34,611 nt of DNA, from NCBI GenBank assembly GCA_007376745.1, contig VMGU01000001.1:1-34611 (forward strand), given 5' to 3'. The DNA comes from Parcubacteria group bacterium Athens0714_26 (lineage in GTDB: Bacteria > Patescibacteriota > Minisyncoccia > UBA6257 > 02-FULL-45-10c). Below, piece after piece: positions 4,326 to 30,831 of this stretch (position 1 is its first letter; each line of letters opens with the position of its first letter). Position numbers and translations under genes: made by a program. Below the pieces are notes generated by a model. The model worked only from the letters and a program-made list of their open reading frames with translations, was not told the origin of the DNA and made no database searches.

Positions 4326-4396
4326 AGCCGAAGGTGAGAATCGAACTCACGTCTCTACTTTACGAAAGTAATGTTCTACCACTGAACTACTCCGGC
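4326..4396 (-). tRNA. tRNA-Thr (anticodon CGU)
   Basis: Hand-folded cloverleaf: acceptor gccggag/cttcggc, anticodon loop ttCGTaa, T arm gtgag-ttcgatt-ctcac. No CCA is encoded. Confidence 0.85.
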
Positions 4397-5507: not shown

Positions 5508-7274
5508 CTATTTTTTAAGTAATTCCTTAAAAACCCGGGCCGGAATTTCAATTTTTGATTTAGACGCCAATTCGCTTAATTTTTCTTTGCCCCGCTTTTG
5601 CTTTTTCCAAAGTTTCATTTTTCTGGTTACATCGCCGCCGGTTTTCCCAAAATTACCGAGTTGTTTTTTAATCGCCGTAATAGTTTCTCTGGCCATAACT
5701 CGCCCGCCGCTAACCGCCTGGATGGCCTGGGAAAACTGCTGGCTAGGTAAAAGCTCTTTAAGCCGCTCCACGGTTTTTCTGGCTTCCCTTTCCAAATCGT
5801 CTTTGTGGACAATACGCGTCAATCCGCCCACATCGTGCCCGGCCACCAAAACTTCCAGCTTCGCAACTTCGGTTTTTTTATAGTCCGCGATTTCATAGCT
5901 TAAAGACGCGTAGCCGTTAGAAACGGACTTCAATCTGTCGTCAAAATCCCTGATTAATTCGGCGAGAGGCAAAGAAGCGGTAATCAATATGGTATTACCC
6001 AAAGTCTCGGTGTTTAAATCGCTTAAACGAAAAATTTCTCGCAGACCTATTACCGCGCCCATATACTGCGAAGGAGTCAAAATTTCCACTTTAGCTATCG
6101 GCTCCATCACTTCCAAATAATCAGGCGGAAAATCTTTCGGATTATTGATAATTACCCAATCGCCGCGGCGCGTTTTCACTTTATAAGAAACGGACGGAAA
6201 ACTATGAACGGTTCTTATATTAAATTCTTTTTCCAAACGTTCGGCGGTAATTTCAAAATGCAGTTTTCCCAAAAATCCAGCTTTAAGGCCCCTGCCTAAA
6301 AATTCGTTGGAGTCACTTTCAAATTTTAACGCCGAATCGTTTAATTTTAATTTGCCGGCGGCATCTTTTAAATTTTCATACTCATCGGCGTCTTCCGGAT
6401 AAAAAGAAACAAATACCACCGGTTGCGGCTCTTTATATCCATGCAAGGCGAAATTTTTTTCATCGGCTACCGGGATGCGGCTAAAAAACACCGTATCGCC
6501 AATCTTCAAAAGCTCGGGATTTTTCAAACCGGTGGCGATGTATCCAATCTGGCCATTTGCCATTTTTGAATCAACTTTAAGTTCGGGCGCGAAATGTCCC
6601 AATTCTTTCACCTTGAATTTGGCGCCTGTCGCTATTAAAACAGCGCTATCCCCTTCGTTTATTTCACCACTAAAAACCCTGACTTCGGCCACAACTCCTT
6701 TATGTTCGTGATAAAAAGAATCAAAAACCAAAGCTTGAAAAAAATCTCCTCTGGCTTCGCCTCGGTAACTGGGACTAGGAACTTTTTTAATAACTGCCGC
6801 TAATAATTCTTCAACGCCTTCTCCGGTTTTACCCGAAACTTTAAAAATTTCGTTTTCGCAGACACCTATCAAATCGGAGGTATTTTTTATAATCTCATCC
6901 AGGCCTGATGGATTCAAATCAATTTTATTGACCGCGCCGATAATTTTAAGTCCCGCTTTTTTCGCGGCGTGGAAATTGGCCAAAGTCTGCGCCTGGATAC
7001 CCTGGCTCGCGTCAACCAATAAAATCGCTCCTTCCACGGCAAGCAAAGCACGTGACACTTCGTAGGAAAAATCACTATGGCCCGGAGTGTCTATCAGATT
7101 CAGAATATAATCTTCATTATTTAACCGGTAATTCATTCTGACTGGAGCCATTTTAATGGTAATACCCCGCTCTCTTTCAAGCTCTAGCTGGTCCAGATAC
7201 TGTTCTTTCATGGCTAAAGTAGATTTACCGTGATCTATATGCGCGATAATACAAAAATTTCTTATTTGATTCAT
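5508..7274 (-). CDS. lepA: translation elongation factor 4 (LepA)
   Basis: G motifs AHIDHGKST, DTPGH and NKID are present, with a LepA-specific C-terminal region. About 14 aa appear to be missing right after the P-loop (see finding). Confidence 0.9.
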   Translation of the reverse strand: MNQIRNFCIIAHIDHGKSTLAMKEQYLDQLELERERGITIKMAPVRMNYRLNNEDYILNLIDTPGHSDFSYEVSRALLAVEGAILLVDASQGIQAQTLANFHAAKKAGLKIIGAVNKIDLNPSGLDEIIKNTSDLIGVCENEIFKVSGKTGEGVEELLAAVIKKVPSPSYRGEARGDFFQALVFDSFYHEHKGVVAEVRVFSGEINEGDSAVLIATGAKFKVKELGHFAPELKVDSKMANGQIGYIATGLKNPELLKIGDTVFFSRIPVADEKNFALHGYKEPQPVVFVSFYPEDADEYENLKDAAGKLKLNDSALKFESDSNEFLGRGLKAGFLGKLHFEITAERLEKEFNIRTVHSFPSVSYKVKTRRGDWVIINNPKDFPPDYLEVMEPIAKVEILTPSQYMGAVIGLREIFRLSDLNTETLGNTILITASLPLAELIRDFDDRLKSVSNGYASLSYEIADYKKTEVAKLEVLVAGHDVGGLTRIVHKDDLEREARKTVERLKELLPSQQFSQAIQAVSGGRVMARETITAIKKQLGNFGKTGGDVTRKMKLWKKQKRGKEKLSELASKSKIEIPARVFKELLKK

Positions 7275-8374
7275 GACACATGGTACCTGACGCCCGACAC
7301 ATTTTCAACTATATTCAAAATCTTTTTTTTAAACTTGGCTTTTGAAAATTTTTTAGCCGACTCGGTAATTTTTTGGCTGTTAAAAGATGATATCAAAAAC
7401 TTCTTTACGGCCATAATCAAGTCATCAGGCGTCTGCTGGTAAAAAAATATTCCGTTTATGCCATTCTGGACAATTTCTCTGGCACCGCCCTGCGAAAAAG
7501 CGATTACTGGCGTCCCGCACGCCAGAGACTCCGCCGCTACCAGACCAAAATCTTCTATTTGCGGGAAAATAACGGCTTCAGCTTCATTATACATACAGCG
7601 AAGCTCCGCCTCGCTGACAAAACCGGTAAAATTAATGCTAGCCGACCTGACTAATTTTTTAAGATTTTTAAGCTCGGGCCCGTCGCCCACGATTAAAAGT
7701 GGCAAACCCAATTTATTGAACGCCTCAATAATAAGGTCAAATCTTTTATACCCCATAAGTCTGCCCACCGCCAGAAAATATCCGCATTTTTTTATTTTTT
7801 TATCTTTGTAAAAAACTTTTAGGTCTACCGGCGGATAAAGAACTTCGGCTTTACGCCCATAATAATTTTTTATTTTATCCGCTATATAATTGGAATTCGC
7901 CAAAAAAATTTCCGGCTTTTGCGCGGTTTTGTAATCCCACCTGCGCAGATACCAAAACATCGGCGAAGTAATAAATTTTAAAAATTCTCCCCAATTAAAA
8001 TATTTATGATATTCCCACGCGTAGCGAAGCGGCGTGTGGCAATAAACTATGTGCGGCGCGTTTTCCCGGCCGGTAATTCCTTTCCCATAACCGGCGCTGG
8101 AGGATAAAATAATGTCATAATCATTTTCGGCTAAACGCATCATAGACGCCGCGAGAGGCATTAACGGAATAAAAAAACGATGATTTTTAATAACAATATC
8201 CCTGTCTAAAAAACTCGTACTTTTAACCTTACCCTCAAAACGGCCCAGTGTTTTTTTCTTATCGTAAAAAAGCGTGTACACGGGAGCGTCGGGGAAAATT
8301 TCGCAAAATGTTTCCAACACCCTCTCGGCGCCGCCGTATTGATTTAAATAATCATGGACTAAAGCTACTTTCAT
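7271..8374 (-). CDS. glycosyltransferase, GT4-type (GT-B fold)
   Basis: The C-terminal EDFGLVAAESLACGTPVIA matches the E-x7-E motif. Its stop overlaps the lepA start by 4 nt. Confidence 0.8.
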   Translation of the reverse strand: MKVALVHDYLNQYGGAERVLETFCEIFPDAPVYTLFYDKKKTLGRFEGKVKSTSFLDRDIVIKNHRFFIPLMPLAASMMRLAENDYDIILSSSAGYGKGITGRENAPHIVYCHTPLRYAWEYHKYFNWGEFLKFITSPMFWYLRRWDYKTAQKPEIFLANSNYIADKIKNYYGRKAEVLYPPVDLKVFYKDKKIKKCGYFLAVGRLMGYKRFDLIIEAFNKLGLPLLIVGDGPELKNLKKLVRSASINFTGFVSEAELRCMYNEAEAVIFPQIEDFGLVAAESLACGTPVIAFSQGGAREIVQNGINGIFFYQQTPDDLIMAVKKFLISSFNSQKITESAKKFSKAKFKKKILNIVENVSGVRYHVS

Positions 8375-19393: not shown

Positions 19394-21499
19394 ATGAAAG
19401 AACTCTCTCCAGCCTATAATCCTAAAGAAGTTGAGGATAAAATTTACCAAGCATGGGAAAAATCCGGCTACTTTGCGCCAGAGGCGCATCGGCCACAGGC
19501 CGACAACCCGAATAATAAAAAAACTTTTACCATAGCCGTGCCGCCGCCCAATGTTACGGGTTCATTGCATATGGGCCACGCCTTAAATGCCACCATACAG
19601 GATATCTTAATCCGCAAAAAAAGGATGGAGGGTTATAAAACCTTATGGATACCCGGCACCGACCATGCCGGTATAGCCACCCAAAAAGTGGTTGAAAAAG
19701 AACTTAAAAAACAGGGGTTAACCAAACAAGATTTAGGCAGAGATAAATTTTTAGAAAAAATATGGGAATGGAAAGAAAAATACGGGAATATTATCTTAAA
19801 CCAATTCAAAAAAATCGGCTGCTCAATGGATTGGTCGCGCGCGCGCTTTACTATGGACGAAGAATACCAGAAAGCTGTTAATGAAGCATTTAACCACTAC
19901 CATAAAAAGGGTTGGCTCTACAAAGCGGAAAAAGTCATAAACTGGTGCGTTAAATGCCAAACCAGCTTATCGGATTTGGAACTGGAATATAAAGAAGAAA
20001 ACGGAAAGCTTTGGCATATTAAATATCTAATAGCCGGAGAAAAAGAATTTATAACAGTCGCGACAACCAGACCGGAAACAATGCTCGGCGACTCCGCCGT
20101 AGCGGTAAATCCGAATGACGAACGCTATAAAAATCTAATCGGTAAAAAATTAATCCTACCAATACAAAATCGCGAGATACCGGTTGTTGCCGATGAAGAA
20201 ATTGATATGGAGTTCGGTACCGGAGCCGTAAAAGTTACGCCAGCCCATGATTTAGTTGACGCGCGCATTGGTGAAAAGCACAACTTGCCAATTTACAAAA
20301 TTATTAACCAGATAGGAAGAATGACCGAAGAGACCGGCGCCATATGCGACGGATTAAAAATCTTCGAATGCCGCACAAAAGTGGTTGAAGAATTAAAAAA
20401 ACAGGATTTAATCGAAAAAGAAGAAGACTATAAGCACAACGTGGCAATTTGCTACCGCTGCGAAGGCGTTATAGAGCCCCTGCCCAGCCTGCAATGGTTT
20501 TTAAAAATGGATGAGTTGGCGAAGCTTGCTGTCAAAGCGGTAAAAACAGGAGAGGTAAAATTTTATCCCGAGCATTGGGAAAAAACTTATATGGCGTGGC
20601 TTGAAAATATCCGCGACTGGAACATTTCCCGCCAAATTTGGTGGGGGCATAAAATCCCCATTGAGGGAGAAACTGATGTTTTGGATACGTGGTTTTCATC
20701 GGCTTTGTGGCCGTTTGCCATACTTGGCTGGCCCGCCTCCGTTAAAACTACGGCGGGTAAACCAAACAAAACCGATGATTTAAAAAACTTCTACCCCACG
20801 CAAGTTCTTTCGACAGCAAGAGATATTATTAATTTATGGGTGGCACGGATGATTTTTTCAGGACTGGAGTTTATGAAAGAAAAACCCTTTAGCGATGTTA
20901 TAATTCATGGCACGATTTTAGCCAAAGACGGACGCAGAATGTCCAAATCGCTTGGCACGGGCATTGACCCGCTGGACATTATTGAAAAATACGGCGCCGA
21001 CGCCACGCGCTTCGGCCTTATCTGGCAATCAATGGGCTCACAGGACATCCGCTGGGACGAAACAGCCGTGGTAGCCGGCAAGAAATTCGCCAATAAAGTC
21101 TGGAATATCGCCCGATTCGTCTTAAAGCAAACTGCCGGGATAAAATCAGAAAATCCTGACGCAGAAAATTTAGCCGGTGAAAAAAATCTCGCGTCCGAAG
21201 ACAAAAATATTATTGACCTTCTGATAAAAACCAAAAAAGAAATAGAAGAAAATCTGAACGCGTACCAATTCGGCCAAGCTCTTCATATCCTATATGATTT
21301 TATATGGCACGACTTCGCCGATAAATACATTGAGCTAAGCAAAAACCGGACCGACGAACAAGCTAAAAAAATACTGTCCGCCATCCTGTTGGATATTTTA
21401 AAAATACTTCATCCTTTTATGCCGCATATTACCGAAGAAATCTATCAAAATTTACCAGGTAAAAATAAAGAATTTATAATGATAGAAAATTGGAAATAA
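19394..21499 (+). CDS. valS: valyl-tRNA synthetase (short form without the C-terminal coiled coil)
   Basis: HIGH-type motif PPPNVTGSLHMGHAL, editing-domain TTRPETMLGD and KMSKS-type RMSKSLG are present. It ends right after the HPFMPHITEE helix. Confidence 0.9.
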   Translation: MKELSPAYNPKEVEDKIYQAWEKSGYFAPEAHRPQADNPNNKKTFTIAVPPPNVTGSLHMGHALNATIQDILIRKKRMEGYKTLWIPGTDHAGIATQKVVEKELKKQGLTKQDLGRDKFLEKIWEWKEKYGNIILNQFKKIGCSMDWSRARFTMDEEYQKAVNEAFNHYHKKGWLYKAEKVINWCVKCQTSLSDLELEYKEENGKLWHIKYLIAGEKEFITVATTRPETMLGDSAVAVNPNDERYKNLIGKKLILPIQNREIPVVADEEIDMEFGTGAVKVTPAHDLVDARIGEKHNLPIYKIINQIGRMTEETGAICDGLKIFECRTKVVEELKKQDLIEKEEDYKHNVAICYRCEGVIEPLPSLQWFLKMDELAKLAVKAVKTGEVKFYPEHWEKTYMAWLENIRDWNISRQIWWGHKIPIEGETDVLDTWFSSALWPFAILGWPASVKTTAGKPNKTDDLKNFYPTQVLSTARDIINLWVARMIFSGLEFMKEKPFSDVIIHGTILAKDGRRMSKSLGTGIDPLDIIEKYGADATRFGLIWQSMGSQDIRWDETAVVAGKKFANKVWNIARFVLKQTAGIKSENPDAENLAGEKNLASEDKNIIDLLIKTKKEIEENLNAYQFGQALHILYDFIWHDFADKYIELSKNRTDEQAKKILSAILLDILKILHPFMPHITEEIYQNLPGKNKEFIMIENWK

Positions 21500-25727: not shown

Positions 25728-25823
25728 TAAATAAAAACTGAGATTTTAATATTGGCTAAATCAATCCCGTTGCACGGGATTGATCGCCCGATAATTAAAG
25801 TTTACCACTTTAATTATTTAGGG

Positions 25824-25905
25824 TGCTCGGGGCGGGAGTCGAACCCGCAAGCCTTACGGCGCAGCATCTTAAGTGCTGTGAGTTTGCCAATTTCTCCACC
25901 CGAGC
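25824..25905 (-). tRNA. tRNA-Leu (anticodon UAA)
   Basis: Acceptor gctcggg/cccgagc, anticodon loop ctTAAga, long variable arm, T arm gcggg-ttcgact-cccgc. Confidence 0.85.
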
Positions 25906-25946
25906 ATAATAATTATATTAAGAACTTGTCCTGCGATAAGATTCTG

Positions 25947-26170
25947 AGGCGTCGGTGAGAATCGAACTCACGTATAAGAGTTTTGTCCCGACGAAAAATT
26001 TGAGGCCTGGGCGAGAATCGAACTCGCGTATAAGAGTTTTGCAGACTCCTGCCTTACCACTTGGCTACCAGGCCGCCTCAAATTTTATGTCGGGATCCCG
26101 ACTTTCTTATTTTAATTTAAAATAGTGCGTCGGGACAGACAAATTTACCTTACCACTTGGCTACGACGCC
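25947..26170 (-). pseudogene. tRNA-Cys-like gene split into 5' and 3' halves by a ~150-nt insert that contains a complete tRNA-Cys
   Basis: The 5' half (26170-26136) reads ggcgtcg-ta-gccaagtggtaaggt. The 3' half (25984-25947) reads aaaactct-tatac-gtgag-ttcgatt-ctcac-cgacgcc-t. The acceptor and T stems pair perfectly. The anticodon-stem 5' strand is not complementary. Confidence 0.6.
26003..26074 (-). tRNA. tRNA-Cys (anticodon GCA), nested
   Basis: Acceptor ggcctgg/ccaggcc, D arm gcca-agtggta-aggc (A13:A22 type), anticodon loop ctGCAaa, T arm gcgag-ttcgatt-ctcgc, discriminator U. Confidence 0.85.
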
Positions 26171-26237
26171 ACACACTCAAAATCTTATGCTGGACTGCGG
26201 CTTAAAACAACTTTAAAATTCCTTTTTAAATAATAAA

Positions 26238-26570
26238 TTAATCGCTATGTTCCAGCAAGGCTTTTTCAACGCTGACGGCATTCTCCGGCCCGTAATCAAT
26301 TCTGAAATATATCCTGGGCATCGGCTTGATACTTATTTTTTGCATTAATAAATATTGTAGCCGGCCCTGAAATTTATTCAGAATCCCCAATACTTTTTCG
26401 GATTTATCCGAAGGAAAAACACTAAAGCTGACCGCGGCGTTTTCCAAGTCTTTAGCCACATTCACCCCGGTAATAGTCACCAAGGCTCCGGAAAACTCCA
26501 TTTCCCTTACCATAATCTCGGCAAGTTTTTCCTGTATTAAACTGCCAACTCTTTGCGGGCGATGTTTCAT
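26238..26570 (-). CDS. rbfA: ribosome-binding factor A
   Basis: N-terminal RPQRVGSLIQEKLAEI is the pattern typical of RbfA. It sits immediately after infB with a 4-nt overlap. Confidence 0.85.
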   Translation of the reverse strand: MKHRPQRVGSLIQEKLAEIMVREMEFSGALVTITGVNVAKDLENAAVSFSVFPSDKSEKVLGILNKFQGRLQYLLMQKISIKPMPRIYFRIDYGPENAVSVEKALLEHSD

Positions 26571-28252: not shown

Positions 28253-28969
28253 TTGGACAAAAGTAATATGCAAAAACGAACATTAACCCAAATTAAAAAA
28301 GCACTTCAAGAACTCTCAAAAAAGGGGTGGATTAAATCTAATCGCAGTCACAATACTGGAATAGGCAAAACTTTAGAGGACTATCTCGGTATTACGGAAA
28401 ACAATATTGCTCTGCCAGACTTTGGAGTAATGGAATTAAAATCTCAAAGACTTAATACTCTTTCGATGATGACCTTGTTCACCAAGAGTCCGGAAGGTAT
28501 TACAAACGCTGAAATAAGAAAACGCTTCGGTTATCCCGATCCTGAATTTCCTAAGATTAAAATTCTTCATCAAACCATCAGTGATGGTAAGAGAAATGGT
28601 ATGGGATTTCAGGCTACTATTGATGAGAAGCAAGGGAAATTATTGATTCTCAAAAAGGGCAAGCTTTTAGGATATTACAGTTTGGCGTTTTTGAGGAAAA
28701 AAGCTATCGAAAAAATAGGAGATGGGTTGATATTGGTTCGTGCTGAAACAAAAAAGATTCGGGGGCACGAATACTTTCACTATAAAGATGCTTATGTTTT
28801 GAAAGAAATTGATCCAACTAAGTTTCTTGCTCACTCAAAATATGATATCCGCTTAGGCGTTTATCATAGTGGTAAAAACGCAGGTAAACCACATGACCAC
28901 GGCTCGGCATTTCGCCTGACCGAAAAATCTCTACCACTTTTGTTTAAGATTCAGAAAAAAATTCTCTAA
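28253..28969 (+). CDS. type II restriction endonuclease, MvaI/BcnI (MutH-like) family
   Basis: NTGIGKTLEDYLGITENNIALPDFGVMELKSQR parallels the BcnI segment GQILERQFGVQENNITLGDLGEFELKGMR as I recall it, giving PD...ELK catalytic residues. C-terminal KPHDHGSAFRL parallels GPHDRGPHLRI. TTG start at 28253 has the SD taagg; an alternative ATG is at 28268. Confidence 0.75.
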   Translation: MDKSNMQKRTLTQIKKALQELSKKGWIKSNRSHNTGIGKTLEDYLGITENNIALPDFGVMELKSQRLNTLSMMTLFTKSPEGITNAEIRKRFGYPDPEFPKIKILHQTISDGKRNGMGFQATIDEKQGKLLILKKGKLLGYYSLAFLRKKAIEKIGDGLILVRAETKKIRGHEYFHYKDAYVLKEIDPTKFLAHSKYDIRLGVYHSGKNAGKPHDHGSAFRLTEKSLPLLFKIQKKIL

Positions 28970-30831
28970 TTCTTCCTTAGGACAACAATACTTTCCTTAT
29001 TCATTGTTTCCTCTAGAGCGCCAACAATATTTGTTGGAGAGTTTTTGATTGGCATTCTTTTCCCCGGAATATTTCGGACAATTATATCTTCGCAAGTAAA
29101 ACCTATCTTTTCTGCTAATTCCGCAATAATAAAGTCGGTTGGAATTCGTACTTGTTTAACCAGTCTATTTCCGACAACGAGGCAAAAGTATTTTCCTGGT
29201 TTAAGTATTCTATGAGAATGCTTCAAACATTCATTCAATCCGAGATTAAAACTCAATACATCTTTTGCCCTTGCTTCGTCTTGCTTAGCAATTTTTTCTA
29301 ATGATTCTTTGAGATAACCAGATGAAAGTGTGTGAATCAAATTTTTGGTAGCTCTACCCCCAAGGAGGTCGTTATCTACCCCAGAGGCATCATTTGGGTC
29401 TTCAAATACATCAATCCATTGGGCAGAGAGCCTAGAAAACTGTCCGTAAGCTACCGTAGTACGACTATCACCATATGGAGGTGAGGTGACTATGCAATCA
29501 ATAGAGTCCGCTTTAATTCCGTTGTCTTTTGATGAATCACCATAGATTATTTTTGTCCACGAATCCTTTTTTGCATCTTTGTAAAATTCACTCATTCCGG
29601 CGATATTTTTCTCTGTGTGTTTGCGAAATATCCCAATAACATCCGGATCATGTTTTTCCAGTTTTTCCCCTTTAACACGCACTAGTTTAAATTCCCCAGT
29701 CTTTGTATTTGAGGAATAGCGAACTGTCTCACTAAAAGCGACCATTAGAAAATTCTGAATGGTTTCATCTTTTATTTCTCGTATAGCTTTCTTTAATTTC
29801 GCAAGTTTAACGATTACCTTATCCTTAAACCAAAAATCAATATTCTTAAAATCTGGTCTTTTTATCTCGTTATCTTTAATTTTTTCTACTCTATCAAGTA
29901 AAGTGAGATATTCTTTTGTTAATTTTTGAGGATTGATTGGGGTTGTTTTTGCTTTCGCAAGAAAAATAGCTAGAGGATTAAGGTCAATACCATAAGCATT
30001 TCTCCCTATCAATCTACTTTCGACTAAAGCTGAGCCAGAGCCACAAAAAATATCGCAAATTGTATCACCCTCTTTACTATAAGTTTCTAGTAATCTTCGT
30101 CCAACCTGTGGAATAAACATTGCGGGATAAGTATGTATTCCGTGCGTGTATGATTTTGTTTTTTCACCTCTATAGTCCCAGGAGTAATCTATTTTACGGA
30201 CGTACTTCTCATCTCTTGATTGCCCTTGATCAAGTTGTGATTCAAGATTGCGAATAATTTTAACGACAACACCTCTCACTTCTACTTCATCACGATAAAT
30301 TGGGAAAAGTGTCGGATTTGCCGGCTGGAGTCTGAACTTCCCATTTTCACGATACAGCTTTTTGAGTGTTGCTTCATTGTCATCAATGACTACCACAACG
30401 GTCTGACCATTTTCTGCCACATCCTGTTTACGGATTACAATAATATCACCATCAAAAATACCTTCATCGATCATACTGCTACCTTGAACTCGCAGGGCAT
30501 AGTGTTTGCCTTGCTTTCCAATTTCATCTTTTGCTATCGTGATAGTCTCATCAGAAATTTCTATGGCTTCGATTGGCTGACCTGCGGCGATTGCCCCAAG
30601 AATAGGAATCTCTATCATCTGCTTTGCTTCTACTGTCGAGACAGCTCGTGGTTGATTGTGTTCTTTATTCAGAAATCCAGCATCTTGAAGTTTACTGATG
30701 TAATAGTGAGACGTGGAAGCAGAAGCTAGTTTAAATTTTTGCCTTATTTCCTCAAGAGAGGGAGCATATTCATGCCTTGCTCTATAAGATTTGATGAAAT
30801 CAAGGACTTGCACTTGCTTTTTTGTGAGCAT
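28966..30831 (-). CDS. fusion protein: full-length LexA-type repressor (wHTH + S24 autopeptidase, aa 1-~195) joined to an amino (N4-C/N6-A) DNA methyltransferase (aa ~230-621)
   Basis: LexA landmarks fall at near-E. coli numbering: Ala83-Gly84 in ILGAIAAGQP, GSSM with Ser119, ATLKKL with Lys157. MTase motif I is DIFCGSGS (30031-30054) and motif IV is TSPPY (29473-29484). It is one uninterrupted 621-codon ORF. Confidence 0.8.
   Translation of the reverse strand: MLTKKQVQVLDFIKSYRARHEYAPSLEEIRQKFKLASASTSHYYISKLQDAGFLNKEHNQPRAVSTVEAKQMIEIPILGAIAAGQPIEAIEISDETITIAKDEIGKQGKHYALRVQGSSMIDEGIFDGDIIVIRKQDVAENGQTVVVVIDDNEATLKKLYRENGKFRLQPANPTLFPIYRDEVEVRGVVVKIIRNLESQLDQGQSRDEKYVRKIDYSWDYRGEKTKSYTHGIHTYPAMFIPQVGRRLLETYSKEGDTICDIFCGSGSALVESRLIGRNAYGIDLNPLAIFLAKAKTTPINPQKLTKEYLTLLDRVEKIKDNEIKRPDFKNIDFWFKDKVIVKLAKLKKAIREIKDETIQNFLMVAFSETVRYSSNTKTGEFKLVRVKGEKLEKHDPDVIGIFRKHTEKNIAGMSEFYKDAKKDSWTKIIYGDSSKDNGIKADSIDCIVTSPPYGDSRTTVAYGQFSRLSAQWIDVFEDPNDASGVDNDLLGGRATKNLIHTLSSGYLKESLEKIAKQDEARAKDVLSFNLGLNECLKHSHRILKPGKYFCLVVGNRLVKQVRIPTDFIIAELAEKIGFTCEDIIVRNIPGKRMPIKNSPTNIVGALEETMNKESIVVLRKN

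Follow-up and report, generated by a model that had tools for sequence, protein, structure and literature searches.

Among the classic targets of mobile DNA are tRNA genes. Integrative elements such as phages and ICEs integrate in tRNA genes and carry a partial copy of the tRNA (attL/attR), and the free-standing GIY-YIG homing endonuclease SegB acts in the tRNA gene region of phage T4. Interrupted tRNA genes are known as well: archaea have split tRNAs, as in Nanoarchaeum, and bulge-helix-bulge introns, while bacterial group I introns occupy anticodon loops—e.g., that of cyanobacterial tRNA-Leu(UAA)—and can carry GIY-YIG endonuclease genes. In addition, short palindromic elements inserted in genes include REP/REPIN sequences, Rickettsia palindromic elements, and MITEs. 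In the cases of mobile DNA in tRNA genes known to us, an integrase takes part, and no more than a portion of the tRNA gene is restored by the element. New in the locus described here, and in its counterparts in relatives, are a whole tRNA, apparently a replacement, lying within the remains of the gene that it would have replaced, a breakpoint that is reproducible to the nucleotide, and tiny hairpins that covary.

The locus belongs to Parcubacteria group bacterium Athens0714_26 (assembly GCA_007376745.1, contig VMGU01000001.1); the whole stretch analyzed, 34,611 nt, is referred to as the window. The sequencing run SRR8863436 carries the locus as well. On the minus strand, an intact tRNA-Cys(GCA) is nested between the halves of a second tRNA-Cys, which is broken exactly at G34|C35 (Table 1). 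The outer 5' half reads GGCGTCG-TA-GCCAAGTGGTAAGG-TAAATTTG-TCTG, i.e., the acceptor strand GGCGTCG and an intact D arm are followed by TAAATTTG in place of the anticodon-stem strand, and the outer 3' half contributes the T stem GTGAG/CTCAC and the acceptor strand CGACGCC. The insert measures ~150 bp, of which ~78 nt is not tRNA. Across its two junctions the layout is ..GTCTG|TCCCGAC.....GTCGGGA|CAAAACTCT, and after the intact tRNA the window reads ..GGCCT|CAAATTTTTC|GTCGGGA; only 14 nt lie between the hairpin arm and the inner tRNA.

Table 1. Features of the nested tRNA-Cys locus and its neighbors (window coordinates)
Feature	Position	Strand	Evidence or remark
rbfA, conserved upstream neighbor (synteny anchor)	26238..26570	-	Pfam RBFA, E = 2e-20
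Outer tRNA-Cys leader arm ATAAGATTTTGAG	26176..26188	-	Pairs with outer trailer; homologous to inner leader ATAAAATTTGAG
Outer tRNA-Cys 5' half, positions 1-34, ending in G34	26136..26170	-	Repeat finder, blastn, comparison of joined halves
Left arm gtcccgacg	26136-26128	-	
Hairpin 1, stem TCCCGAC/GTCGGGA, 26-nt AT-rich loop, abutting G34	26096..26135	-	Fold and inverted repeat
14-nt palindrome GTCGGGATCCCGAC, junction of hairpins 1 and 2	26089..26102	.	Sequence search
Hairpin 2, stem TCCCGAC/GTCGGGA, abutting C35	25986..26095	-	Fold and inverted repeat (21 nt, 90%)
Inner tRNA leader ATAAAATTTGAGGC; its AAAATTTGA pairs with the trailer	26075..26088	-	Sequence and fold
Inner intact tRNA-Cys(GCA)	26003..26074	-	ARAGORN; Rfam tRNA, 67.7 bits
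Inner tRNA trailer; TCAAATTTT, including the discriminator T at 26003, pairs with the leader	25993..26002	-	Sequence, fold, inverted repeat
Right arm cgtcgggac	25993-25985	-	
Outer tRNA-Cys 3' half, C35 to discriminator U73	25947..25985	-	Direct repeat; blastn E = 1.9e-9
Outer tRNA-Cys trailer arm CTCAGAATCTTAT	25936..25948	-	Inverted repeat
tRNA-Leu(UAA), conserved downstream neighbor of tRNA-Cys in the clade (synteny anchor)	25821..25906	-	

The minimum-free-energy fold of the locus (-85.8 kcal/mol, z = -5.6) consists of two adjacent hairpins with identical stems, and the arms are better read as two equal hairpins, TCCCGAC..GTCGGGA, standing side by side. The "loop" of the second holds the inner leader, the inner tRNA, and the inner trailer, and the palindrome between them is composed of the right arm of hairpin 1 and the left arm of hairpin 2. 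Neither the arm motif nor the exact palindrome was found a second time in the window. A sequence check recovered, position for position on the minus strand, all the elements that the original prediction had listed. The leader-trailer helix that it described around the inner tRNA is confirmed. It overlooked a similar helix of the outer gene (13 nt, 92% complementary by repeat finder), and the inner leader and trailer are homologous to the outer ones. Also not seen at that stage were the equality of the two hairpins and the larger family, usually with a GIY-YIG gene, that is described below.

We then compared the two tRNA-Cys copies. The repeat finder returned two half-copies, one of 48 nt (85%) and the other of 23 nt (91%), plus the inverted arms, and blastn with the inner tRNA as query matched the halves at E = 1.9e-9 and 1.1e-4. 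Joining the halves gives a tRNA-shaped sequence of 74 nt, which matches the inner gene at 62 of 72 positions. The outer acceptor and T stems are perfectly paired (7/7 and 5/5), as had been predicted, and, relative to the inner gene, carry three base-pair changes that are compensated in full (acceptor stem, two; T stem, one), which indicates that the outer halves were once one functional gene. The inner tRNA-Cys is a functional gene, and its acceptor strand, GGCCTGG, is of the type seen in two relatives (L002 and L004).

The outer copy, as it stands, does not look like a working tRNA. Its anticodon-stem 5' strand is 2 nt longer than that of the inner gene and does not pair: TAAATTTG faces ACTCT, a mismatch that the original prediction had already pointed out, and the joined halves have no anticodon stem. 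ARAGORN read the joined halves as tRNA-Gln(ctg), out of register, and when run on the genomic locus with intron options and lowered thresholds, the check that had been proposed for an interrupted outer tRNA, it called the inner tRNA alone. No Rfam intron, ribozyme, or other RNA family was found at the gathering threshold, or at E <= 10 within 25780-26260. The only extra Rfam match at E <= 10 was a sub-threshold tmRNA T-arm similarity in the outer 3' half. We also considered bulge-helix-bulge processing and rejected it on junction geometry, since both junctions end one continuous 9-bp helix (G34:C35) with no 3-nt bulges. Among the ten ORFs checked in this 34.6-kb window of a MAG, none encodes a splicing endonuclease or ligase.

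A diverged strain from another sample (L017; reads SRR33452760), with an RbfA identity of 95%, shares the layout up to the end of its contig and was compared with the window part by part. Four-fold sites of IF2 and RbfA, which served as a neutral yardstick, differ by 32%. The outer 5' half differs at 10 of 37 positions (27%), including a change of G18G19 to AG and others that affect the D stem, and all ten differences were assigned to the L017 lineage. The inner tRNA differs at 1 of 37 positions over the part compared. Hairpin 1, the palindrome, and the inner leader together differ at 3 of 61 nt (5%), namely two substitutions in the 40 nt of hairpin 1, one of them keeping a G:T pair, and one in the inner leader; the first 49 nt after rbfA are conserved as well. 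In L017, these comparisons indicate, the outer 5' half is free of tRNA constraint and changes roughly as fast as neutral sites. The outer 5' half of the window still looks pristine, with a D arm equal to that of the inner gene and a fully paired acceptor, which counts against our preferred explanation (below); this could reflect conversion by the inner copy, a recent event, or residual constraint.

In six GTDB relatives and several metagenome relatives, the site is empty, with a single uninterrupted tRNA-Cys between IF2/rbfA and tRNA-Leu(UAA); another relative (L006) has two tandem Cys-type tRNAs. The downstream ABC-transporter gene has its best non-identical homologue, at 73%, in another sample (L021), where no tRNA lies upstream. 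Independent inserts were found at tRNA-Cys G34|C35 in L024/L025 and L003; each combines an intact tRNA-Cys with a GIY-YIG ORF and a pair of TC..GA hairpins. The empty sites, for which a search had been proposed, and the independent inserts together support the second of the two readings in the original prediction, that of an inverted-repeat element that carries a tRNA, entered a tRNA-Cys gene, and supplied a replacement. As for further copies of the insert, the architecture recurs in relatives, but the exact arm pattern TCCCGAC..GTCGGGA was found, among 111 loci, only in copies of the window locus.

A metagenome scan with the GIY-YIG ORF returned 80 loci. In 35 distinct loci, an intact tRNA-Cys directly follows the ORF, and 33 of these have a 5' tRNA fragment farther upstream. 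The acceptor strand of that fragment is fully complementary to a downstream 3' fragment and differs from that of the inner tRNA in L030, L031, L055, and L066, where the nesting is the same as in the window. A further state without the nuclease gene occurs in L110, a tRNA-Arg version with the inner tRNA between 12-nt inverted arms in L081, and the same breakpoint with its two hairpins reappears in independent loci that have diverged as well as in tRNA-Ser.

From L003, L024, and L028-L077, we defined a family of hairpin-pair/GIY-YIG tRNA cassettes, which is common in related Parcubacteria. A complete cassette has a resident tRNA-Cys that is broken at G34|C35, and sometimes in the D or T loop too, by a pair of 15-nt palindromic hairpins; a short stub and an ~80-aa GIY-YIG gene of the Slx1/UPF0213 type fused to an intact tRNA-Cys come next, often followed by the matching 3' part of the old gene and a second hairpin pair. 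The window shares with this family the break of a tRNA-Cys(GCA) at G34|C35, the two adjacent TC..GA hairpins that fill it (with loops of 26 and 96 nt, vs. 3 nt elsewhere), and an intact tRNA of the same isoacceptor between 5' and 3' remnants. Absent from the window are the GIY-YIG ORF directly upstream of the intact tRNA, which L110 also lacks, and homology of the insert sequence, e.g., the junction CCTC|AAGG(A)GGC that follows the intact tRNA in many loci. What its insert has in common with the nuclease-bearing cassettes is thus architecture, not sequence, which counts against membership. Moreover, the intact tRNA of those cassettes is fused directly to the ORF, whereas the leader and trailer of the window's inner gene are homologous to those of the outer gene, so the window insert may have a separate origin. 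We found no description of such an arrangement in full-text literature searches on GIY-YIG, candidate-phyla-radiation (CPR) tRNA introns, Patescibacteria palindromes, UPF0213, and Slx1/YhbQ, and the family is apparently undescribed.

To characterize the hairpin pairs, we scored them with a fixed-geometry finder. The junction gtctg|..|caaaac was found in 37 loci, which hold 30 distinct 30-mers at G34|C35; pairing holds in 98.6% of cells, and in 8 of 12 pairs both sides vary. The resulting covariation score of 0.409 compares with 0.112 in shuffles and was reached in none of 500. The ORF of the relatives matches Pfam GIY-YIG (E = 1.3e-17) and is intact in 63 of 65 distinct sequences. The structures nearest to its AlphaFold model (pLDDT 90) are UPF0213 BH0048 and the nuclease domain of Slx1 (TM 0.65-0.69), I-TevI being a much weaker match, and the predicted nuclease of ~80 aa is without a DNA-binding domain, i.e., little more than a catalytic domain. 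No GIY-YIG homologue was detected by tblastn in the 34.6-kb window.

The window probably holds an ORF-less member of this family of tRNA-targeting cassettes, in which the resident gene was killed and a replacement supplied, leaving the outer halves as dead remains. The outer halves would derive from a tRNA-Cys that once stood between rbfA and tRNA-Leu, and the insert, made up of two hairpins with the same stem, the second holding a complete tRNA-Cys with a short leader-trailer helix, would have entered it precisely at G34|C35 of the anticodon loop; the inner gene would now do the work of the outer one. As for the mechanism, we infer from the relatives that the predicted nuclease may cut tRNA genes at the loops of their own inverted repeats, with a target of about G|CAA, and that repair may then copy the cassette, the tRNA halves acting as homology arms. 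The putative order of events would be the one given here. Since the resident gene would be destroyed and the only good copy would sit inside it, such a cassette would not be easily lost. In the window lineage, the nuclease gene would have been lost or never have been present. The inner tRNA retains the presumed target TG|CAA, which counts against this mechanism, as it leaves self-immunity unexplained. A wider view, which we put forward tentatively and hold to be somewhat less probable than not, is that Parcubacteria harbor an undescribed class of selfish DNA that combines paired palindromic 15-nt hairpins and a replacement tRNA with a minimal GIY-YIG nuclease of the Slx1-like type, and of which the nested tRNA in the window would be a fossil. 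Members of this class would invade the loops of tRNA genes, most often tRNA-Cys at G34|C35, copy themselves via homology arms made of tRNA halves, and become indispensable by wrecking the resident tRNA while carrying the sole working copy.

We weighed this explanation against several others. Misassembly, which the original prediction had named as its possible undoing, is excluded by the assemblies at NCBI (L019), ENA (L018), and Logan (L020), which are identical at the locus, together with the shared layout in L017. The short-read contigs L017 and L020 both stop inside the repeated anticodon region, so the repeat is hard to assemble, and this is what a chimeric join of two tRNA-Cys alleles could appeal to; however, two long contigs of different assemblies (NCBI, 34.8 kb; ENA, 27.5 kb) agree across the entire locus, the order in L017 is the same up to its contig end, and such an artefact has a negligible chance of being real. 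Very improbable, too, is a functional interrupted or split tRNA, in which RNase P and RNase Z would free the inner tRNA first, and the arms would align the outer halves so that these, ligated or in two pieces, serve as a second tRNA-Cys. The original prediction had hinted that bridging helices might let the halves rejoin in this way, and the predicted fold does juxtapose them, but there is no anticodon stem, the joined product is out of register, the helix at the junctions is continuous, and no intron or ribozyme model matches. The compensated outer stems and discriminator U73 fit this reading, as does the undecayed 5' half of the window, unlike its L017 counterpart. Against it, the L017 copy has lost G18G19 and part of the D stem and diverges at close to the neutral rate, and equivalent fragments in relatives are truncated at variable points. 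On the preferred explanation, the outer halves would at most be passengers that flank the inner gene in a precursor transcript, with no rejoining.

A purely local rearrangement, i.e., duplication or triplication of tRNA-Cys followed by deletions or template switching at palindromes, would call for no mobile element or nuclease. Palindromes promote slippage, L006 has its tandem pair, and the inner and outer leaders and trailers are homologous, yet deletions in a tandem array are not expected to yield mutually pairing pieces at G34/C35 that differ from the middle copy by three compensated pairs, nor would one breakpoint and two-hairpin design be expected to recur in independent loci and in tRNA-Ser; we regard this origin as improbable. 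Slightly less so, though still unlikely, is exaptation, in which the inner gene would have come to use the hairpins, and perhaps also the outer halves, e.g., as promoter or processing helices. The inner tRNA start is preceded, at 8-13 nt, by a TAAAAT box, but a sigma-70 scan gave no promoter on the tRNA strand upstream of the inner gene. The 95% conservation of hairpin 1, palindrome, and inner leader, against 32% neutral divergence, and that of the stretch following rbfA would suit such a role; this conservation rests on one sister sequence and could equally reflect DNA-level needs of the element.

The preferred reading, an ORF-less cassette inside the remains of its target, sets the locus apart from each of the described systems. 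As in integrative elements, the target is a tRNA gene, often at its anticodon or T loop, a replacement tRNA sequence is brought in, and partial duplicates are left behind; here, however, a whole tRNA rather than a 3' part lies inside the old gene, which is left as halves, and the ~150-bp insert lacks an integrase and has two equal hairpins as its boundaries. There is also no room for an integrative element, since the 3' part of the tRNA is repeated only 17 nt after the intact tRNA. T4 SegB is a phage homing endonuclease (PMC13096335). The GIY-YIG gene of the relatives resembles that type in adjoining tRNA genes, in its patchy occurrence, and in having pseudogenes (L003, L024) and ORF-less states, whereas its ~80-aa product is nearer to UPF0213/Slx1 than to I-TevI and comes with tRNA fragments and hairpin pairs; the window has no such gene. 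Halves with pairable extra sequences and an interruption in the anticodon loop recall archaeal split tRNAs, but this genome is bacterial, the junction is at 34/35 without a bulge-helix-bulge or an anticodon stem, the "intron" holds a full tRNA of the same identity, and the outer half drifts. Like group I introns, the insert sits in the anticodon loop of a bacterial tRNA gene; no intron core was detected, however, the ~78 nt outside the tRNA would not accommodate one, and there is no sign of splicing. GC-rich palindromic units of 15 nt in inverted pairs inserted in RNA genes are reminiscent of REP and MITE types, although the cassette units are much shorter, lie in loops of existing hairpins next to G|CAA, and are tied to tRNA fragments and a GIY-YIG gene, not to a RAYT/HUH transposase.

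If the proposed mechanism is true, it would represent a new way for selfish DNA to become unlosable, through "addiction" to an essential tRNA, and would give a natural function to the poorly understood UPF0213/Slx1-like GIY-YIG proteins of bacteria. It would also be a source of tRNA pseudogene fragments that can mislead tRNA annotation in CPR genomes. The locus would further illustrate, in a bacterium, the long-standing view that conflict with mobile elements gives rise to interrupted and split tRNA genes.

Other genes occupy the equivalent site in relatives. A serine recombinase is present there in L003 only. In L045, tRNA-Cys and tRNA-Leu are separated by an HNH endonuclease gene, with similar sequence in L058, L065, and L048, which makes the locus a hotspot for endonuclease genes. 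Elsewhere in the window, a different 2x15-nt hairpin pair lies in the ValRS gene (19474-19503) and may be an in-frame insertion into a protein gene. Hairpin pairs may themselves be the smallest mobile units, entering the loops of hairpins and, in frame, even protein genes.

Sequence inspection, ARAGORN, Rfam, a repeat finder and blastn bore out in full the elements that the original prediction had listed for this nested tRNA-Cys arrangement. A resident tRNA-Cys is split between G34 and C35 by an insert of two equal hairpins that brings with it a complete tRNA-Cys (see table). The two 9-nt arms and the 14-nt palindrome of that description are present, but they are in fact the four stem strands of these hairpins; the palindrome, at the hairpin junction, occurs only once within the window. 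ARAGORN and Rfam called only the inner tRNA-Cys and tRNA-Leu at the locus, while both outer half copies and all arms were recovered by the repeat finder and blastn. In the predicted fold of the 241-nt region (−85.8 kcal/mol, z = −5.6), the outer acceptor stem and T stem form, as do hairpin 1 and, around the inner cloverleaf, hairpin 2.

Anatomy of the split tRNA-Cys locus in the window, in the direction of transcription
Feature	Position	Strand	Description
rbfA	26570-26238	minus	upstream neighbor; followed by a 68-nt spacer, then the outer 5′ half
Outer tRNA-Cys 5′ half	26170-26136	minus	GGCGTCG-TA-GCCAAGTGGTAAGG-TAAATTTG-TCTG; last base is the would-be G34
Hairpin 1	26135-26096	minus	TCCCGAC, AT-rich 26-nt loop, GTCGGGA
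Hairpin 2	left arm 26095-26089; right arm 25992-25986	minus	TCCCGAC/GTCGGGA, same stem as hairpin 1
Content of hairpin 2 "loop"	tRNA at 26074-26003	minus	14-nt leader, intact tRNA-Cys(GCA), 10-nt trailer
Outer tRNA-Cys 3′ half	25985-25947	minus	C35 onward, directly after hairpin 2: CAAAACTCT-TATAC-GTGAG-TTCGATT-CTCAC-CGACGCC-T
tRNA-Leu(UAA)	25906-25821	minus	downstream of the outer 3′ half

The source is a Parcubacteria MAG. Its locus was base-for-base identical across contigs from NCBI, from an independent ENA assembly and from Logan, and a diverged sister strain from another sample (L017; RbfA 95% identical) showed the same order of parts until its contig ended inside the inner anticodon loop. 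The three identical assemblies and the shared layout rule out an assembly artefact. The empty site that the original prediction proposed looking for in related genomes does exist: six GTDB relatives (IF2 47-57% identical) and several metagenome relatives carry a single, uninterrupted, ordinary tRNA-Cys here, in a shared neighborhood of tRNA-Ser, IF2, rbfA, tRNA-Cys and tRNA-Leu(UAA). In another homologous locus (L006, 2072-2146), a second, divergent tRNA with a Cys anticodon (GATCCGG..; anticodon at position 35) stands in tandem after the ordinary tRNA-Cys.

When joined, the outer halves matched the inner gene at 62/72 positions, the differences being three fully compensated base pairs and an anticodon-stem 5′ strand with 2 extra nt and no pairing. 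Since the three base-pair differences are compensated, the halves were formerly one functional gene. ARAGORN read the joined halves as a tRNA-Gln(ctg), in a shifted register. Relatives commonly share the inner acceptor stem, GGCCTGG; the outer stem, GGCGTCG, is atypical. In its T arm (25954-25973, minus), the outer 3′ half is identical at 20/20 positions to the window's tRNA-Thr(CGU) (4333-4352, minus), from which the T stem of the inner gene differs; this similarity weakly supports the view that the outer copy is this genome's native gene.

Does the outer copy still work, as in the reading of an interrupted but functional tRNA? Our neutral yardstick was the set of four-fold degenerate sites, 182 in IF2 and 37 in rbfA, which were 67.6% identical between the window and L017, corresponding to about 32% neutral divergence. 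The outer 5′ half differed at 10/37 positions and, combined with the outer leader, at roughly one-third of positions, while only 3 differences were found in the 61 nt of hairpin 1, palindrome and inner leader (one of them turning a stem G:C into G:T), and 1 in the first 37 nt of the inner tRNA. Most substitutions within the outer 5′ half were G/C to A/T; they converted G18G19 to AG and affected the D stem. Thus, this half now drifts freely in the sister strain, as unconstrained DNA would, while on this comparison the insert hairpin and leader are as well conserved as the working tRNA. Bulge-helix-bulge geometry was absent at the window junctions, both of which lie at the end of one continuous helix, and no intron or ribozyme match was found at the locus. 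Together with the missing anticodon stem, these observations argue that the outer halves are probably a pseudogene rather than a split or spliced tRNA. On the other side, all ten changes fall on the L017 branch; in the window, the outer D arm is still identical to that of the inner gene and the acceptor helix pairs at 7/7 positions. The D-arm identity could stem from gene conversion by the inner copy 96 nt away, and the intact state may mean that the event was recent or that some constraint persists.

Because hairpin 1 and the leader are so strongly conserved, they may have been co-opted to help express or process the inner tRNA; a promoter scan lent no support to a sigma-70 site. The 49 nt that follow the rbfA stop codon (26189-26237, minus) likewise differed at only 2 positions from L017, against 32% at neutral sites; this stretch, which includes TTGTTT 17 nt upstream of TAAGAT, is a conserved noncoding element and possibly a promoter or terminator.

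The same design recurs in relatives, which, together with the empty sites, supports the original reading of a tRNA-bearing replacement element that landed in a tRNA-Cys gene. In one relative (L024/L025; RbfA 64% identical), a tRNA-Cys 5′ half ending in ..GTCTG right after rbfA is followed by two 15-nt hairpins (TCTCGC-TAT-GCGAGA and TCTGGC-GTA-GTCAGA), a stub CAAAACAC, a small ORF and an intact tRNA-Cys; beyond this come ..GTCTG again, two further hairpins, and CAAAAC with the tRNA-Cys 3′ half. The ORF encodes a GIY-YIG nuclease (Pfam, E = 1.3e-17), and a copy 72% identical occupies the same position in L003, with a premature stop in both. A scan of metagenome contigs for this ORF yielded 80 loci. 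Among the closer loci, an intact tRNA-Cys begins 1-35 nt downstream of the ORF and is itself followed by tRNA-Leu; the more distant ORFs adjoin tRNA-Ser, tRNA-Arg, tRNA-Lys, tRNA-Ala or tRNA-Pro. A tRNA 5′ fragment preceded the ORF in 33/35 distinct tRNA-Cys loci, and in L030, L031, L055 and L066, its acceptor strand is perfectly complementary to the 3′ fragment downstream of the intact tRNA and differs from that tRNA itself, i.e., the nesting seen in the window. Other loci hold variants: no downstream fragment and a hairpin pair in the D loop (L108), the nuclease only (L111), an intact tRNA and downstream fragment without the nuclease gene (L110), or a tRNA-Arg version with the inner tRNA between 12-nt inverted arms (L081).

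At the G34/C35 breakpoint, 37 loci contained 30 distinct 30-mers, each made of two hairpins of 6 bp with a 3-nt loop, a first base T and a last base A. The loops read TNY in the first hairpin and RNA in the second; the most frequent loops are mutually reverse-complementary (TAC/GTA, TTC/GAA), so that the pair looks like an inverted duplication, and that of L042 is a perfect 30-nt palindrome. Covariation in the stems was strong: across these 30-mers, 98.6% of stem cells were paired, compared with 11-54% in slid controls, and both sides change in 8/12 pairs (covariation score 0.409 versus 0.112 in shuffles; reached by 0/500). The same hairpin pairs also occur in D loops (between TAGC and CAAGT), in T loops (between GGTG and CAATTCC) and, in L075, once within the loop of another such hairpin; the inserts therefore occupy the loops of inverted repeats that were already there, next to G/CAA. 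A fixed-geometry count gave 111 distinct pairs in the 438 kb of fetched sequence versus 5 in shuffled sequence. The window hairpins share the position, also begin with TC and end with GA, and have TCCCGC/GCGGGA-type stems; unlike those of relatives, their loops are filled, that of hairpin 1 with 26 nt and that of hairpin 2 with the tRNA unit.

A GC-rich 2 × 15-nt pair of the same geometry, TGCGCCAGAGGCGCA followed by TCGGCCACAGGCCGA, lies at 19474-19503 (plus) in the window's ValRS ORF (19394-21499), encoding APEAHRPQAD just upstream of PPPNVTGSLHMGHA. In Thermus thermophilus ValRS, this segment has 8 residues fewer, so the pair may represent a palindromic mini-element that inserted in frame. 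Similar pairs (TTCGCC..GGCGAA followed by TCCGCC..GGCGGA) occur in L042 (41-70), L045 (1598-1627) and L078 (763-792).

The GIY-YIG protein, of about 80 aa, has no domain besides the catalytic one. It forms at least 196 clusters at 90% identity, annotated ones being named [quoted passage not shown] and the ORF is intact in 63/65 distinct sequences. It often extends 18 nt into the intact tRNA, its stop being the TAA of the D loop (for example L040, 2235-2255, and many other loci, ending ..KKKF GLVAKW* inside the intact tRNA-Cys), so that RNase P processing of the tRNA would cut the ORF's mRNA upstream of the stop codon. A PDB sequence search returned UPF0213 proteins and Slx1, a structure-specific nuclease. 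The AlphaFold model (pLDDT 90.1) matched UPF0213 protein BH0048 (E = 8e-5) and Slx1 nuclease domains (TM 0.65-0.69, 30-33% identity), and the I-TevI catalytic domain only at E = 0.16. The predicted likeness to Slx1 fits, without proving, an enzyme that would recognize DNA by a hairpin or cruciform structure and not by a long sequence.

Independent loci share this breakpoint and hairpin design, usually together with a GIY-YIG gene. We propose that the nuclease cuts tRNA genes at the loops of their inverted repeats and that repair would then copy in the cassette, using a filled allele as template and the tRNA halves as homology arms; the outer halves would therefore be what is left of the recipient gene, and the interior would come from the donor. 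Because the only good tRNA-Cys would then lie inside the cassette, deleting the cassette would be lethal, while nuclease genes would decay (L003, L024) or be lost (L110, the window). The leader and trailer of the window's inner gene are homologous to the outer ones, whereas in nuclease-bearing cassettes the tRNA is fused to the ORF, which leaves room for a separate origin of the window insert within the same general process.

As in tRNA-targeting integrative elements, the invader at the window locus compensates for its own damage, but it has no integrase and carries a whole tRNA gene. The window's relatives are like free-standing homing-endonuclease cassettes, except that their putative nuclease belongs with Slx1/UPF0213. 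The hairpin pairs are reminiscent of REP/REPIN or Rickettsia palindromic elements but are smaller and loop-targeting. Likeness to archaeal split tRNAs and bacterial group I tRNA introns is superficial only, their defining features having been sought at the locus and not found. No description of the nested tRNA/hairpin/nuclease arrangement was found in the full text of open-access papers and preprints, an absence that speaks only weakly for novelty. Mobile DNA of a kind that enters tRNA genes and makes good the damage is already known, and the window contains a variant of it, an ORF-less relic of a seemingly undescribed family of tRNA-invading cassettes in Parcubacteria. That these are addictive elements of a new class, invading loops with a minimal structure-specific nuclease as their driver, is a tentative idea, to which we give somewhat less than even credence.

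Other elements adjoin these tRNA genes. In L003, a large serine recombinase (Resolvase, Recombinase and zinc ribbon; 6300-7719, minus) ends beside the 3′ end of the intact tRNA-Cys, and tRNA-Leu is missing downstream, suggesting yet another element integrated at tRNA-Cys. Fragments of tRNA-Leu with inserts (5′ piece GCCCGGGTGGATTAAACCG.., 3′ piece ..GAGTCCCACCCCGGGCA) adjoin intact tRNA-Leu(UAA) in L023 (about 2020-2100) and L110 (about 700-860); tRNA-Leu therefore carries the same kind of relics as tRNA-Cys. An HNH endonuclease ORF (Pfam HNH_3, E = 3e-8) lies between tRNA-Cys and tRNA-Leu in L045 (about 2310-2840), with similar sequence in L058, L065 and L048; with this second endonuclease family, the site is thus a hotspot for endonuclease genes. 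Elsewhere in the window (28253-30831), an MvaI/BcnI-family restriction endonuclease gene adjoins an unusual regulator-methylase fusion ORF, which combines a LexA-like DNA-binding domain, an S24 peptidase and an N6/N4 DNA methylase.
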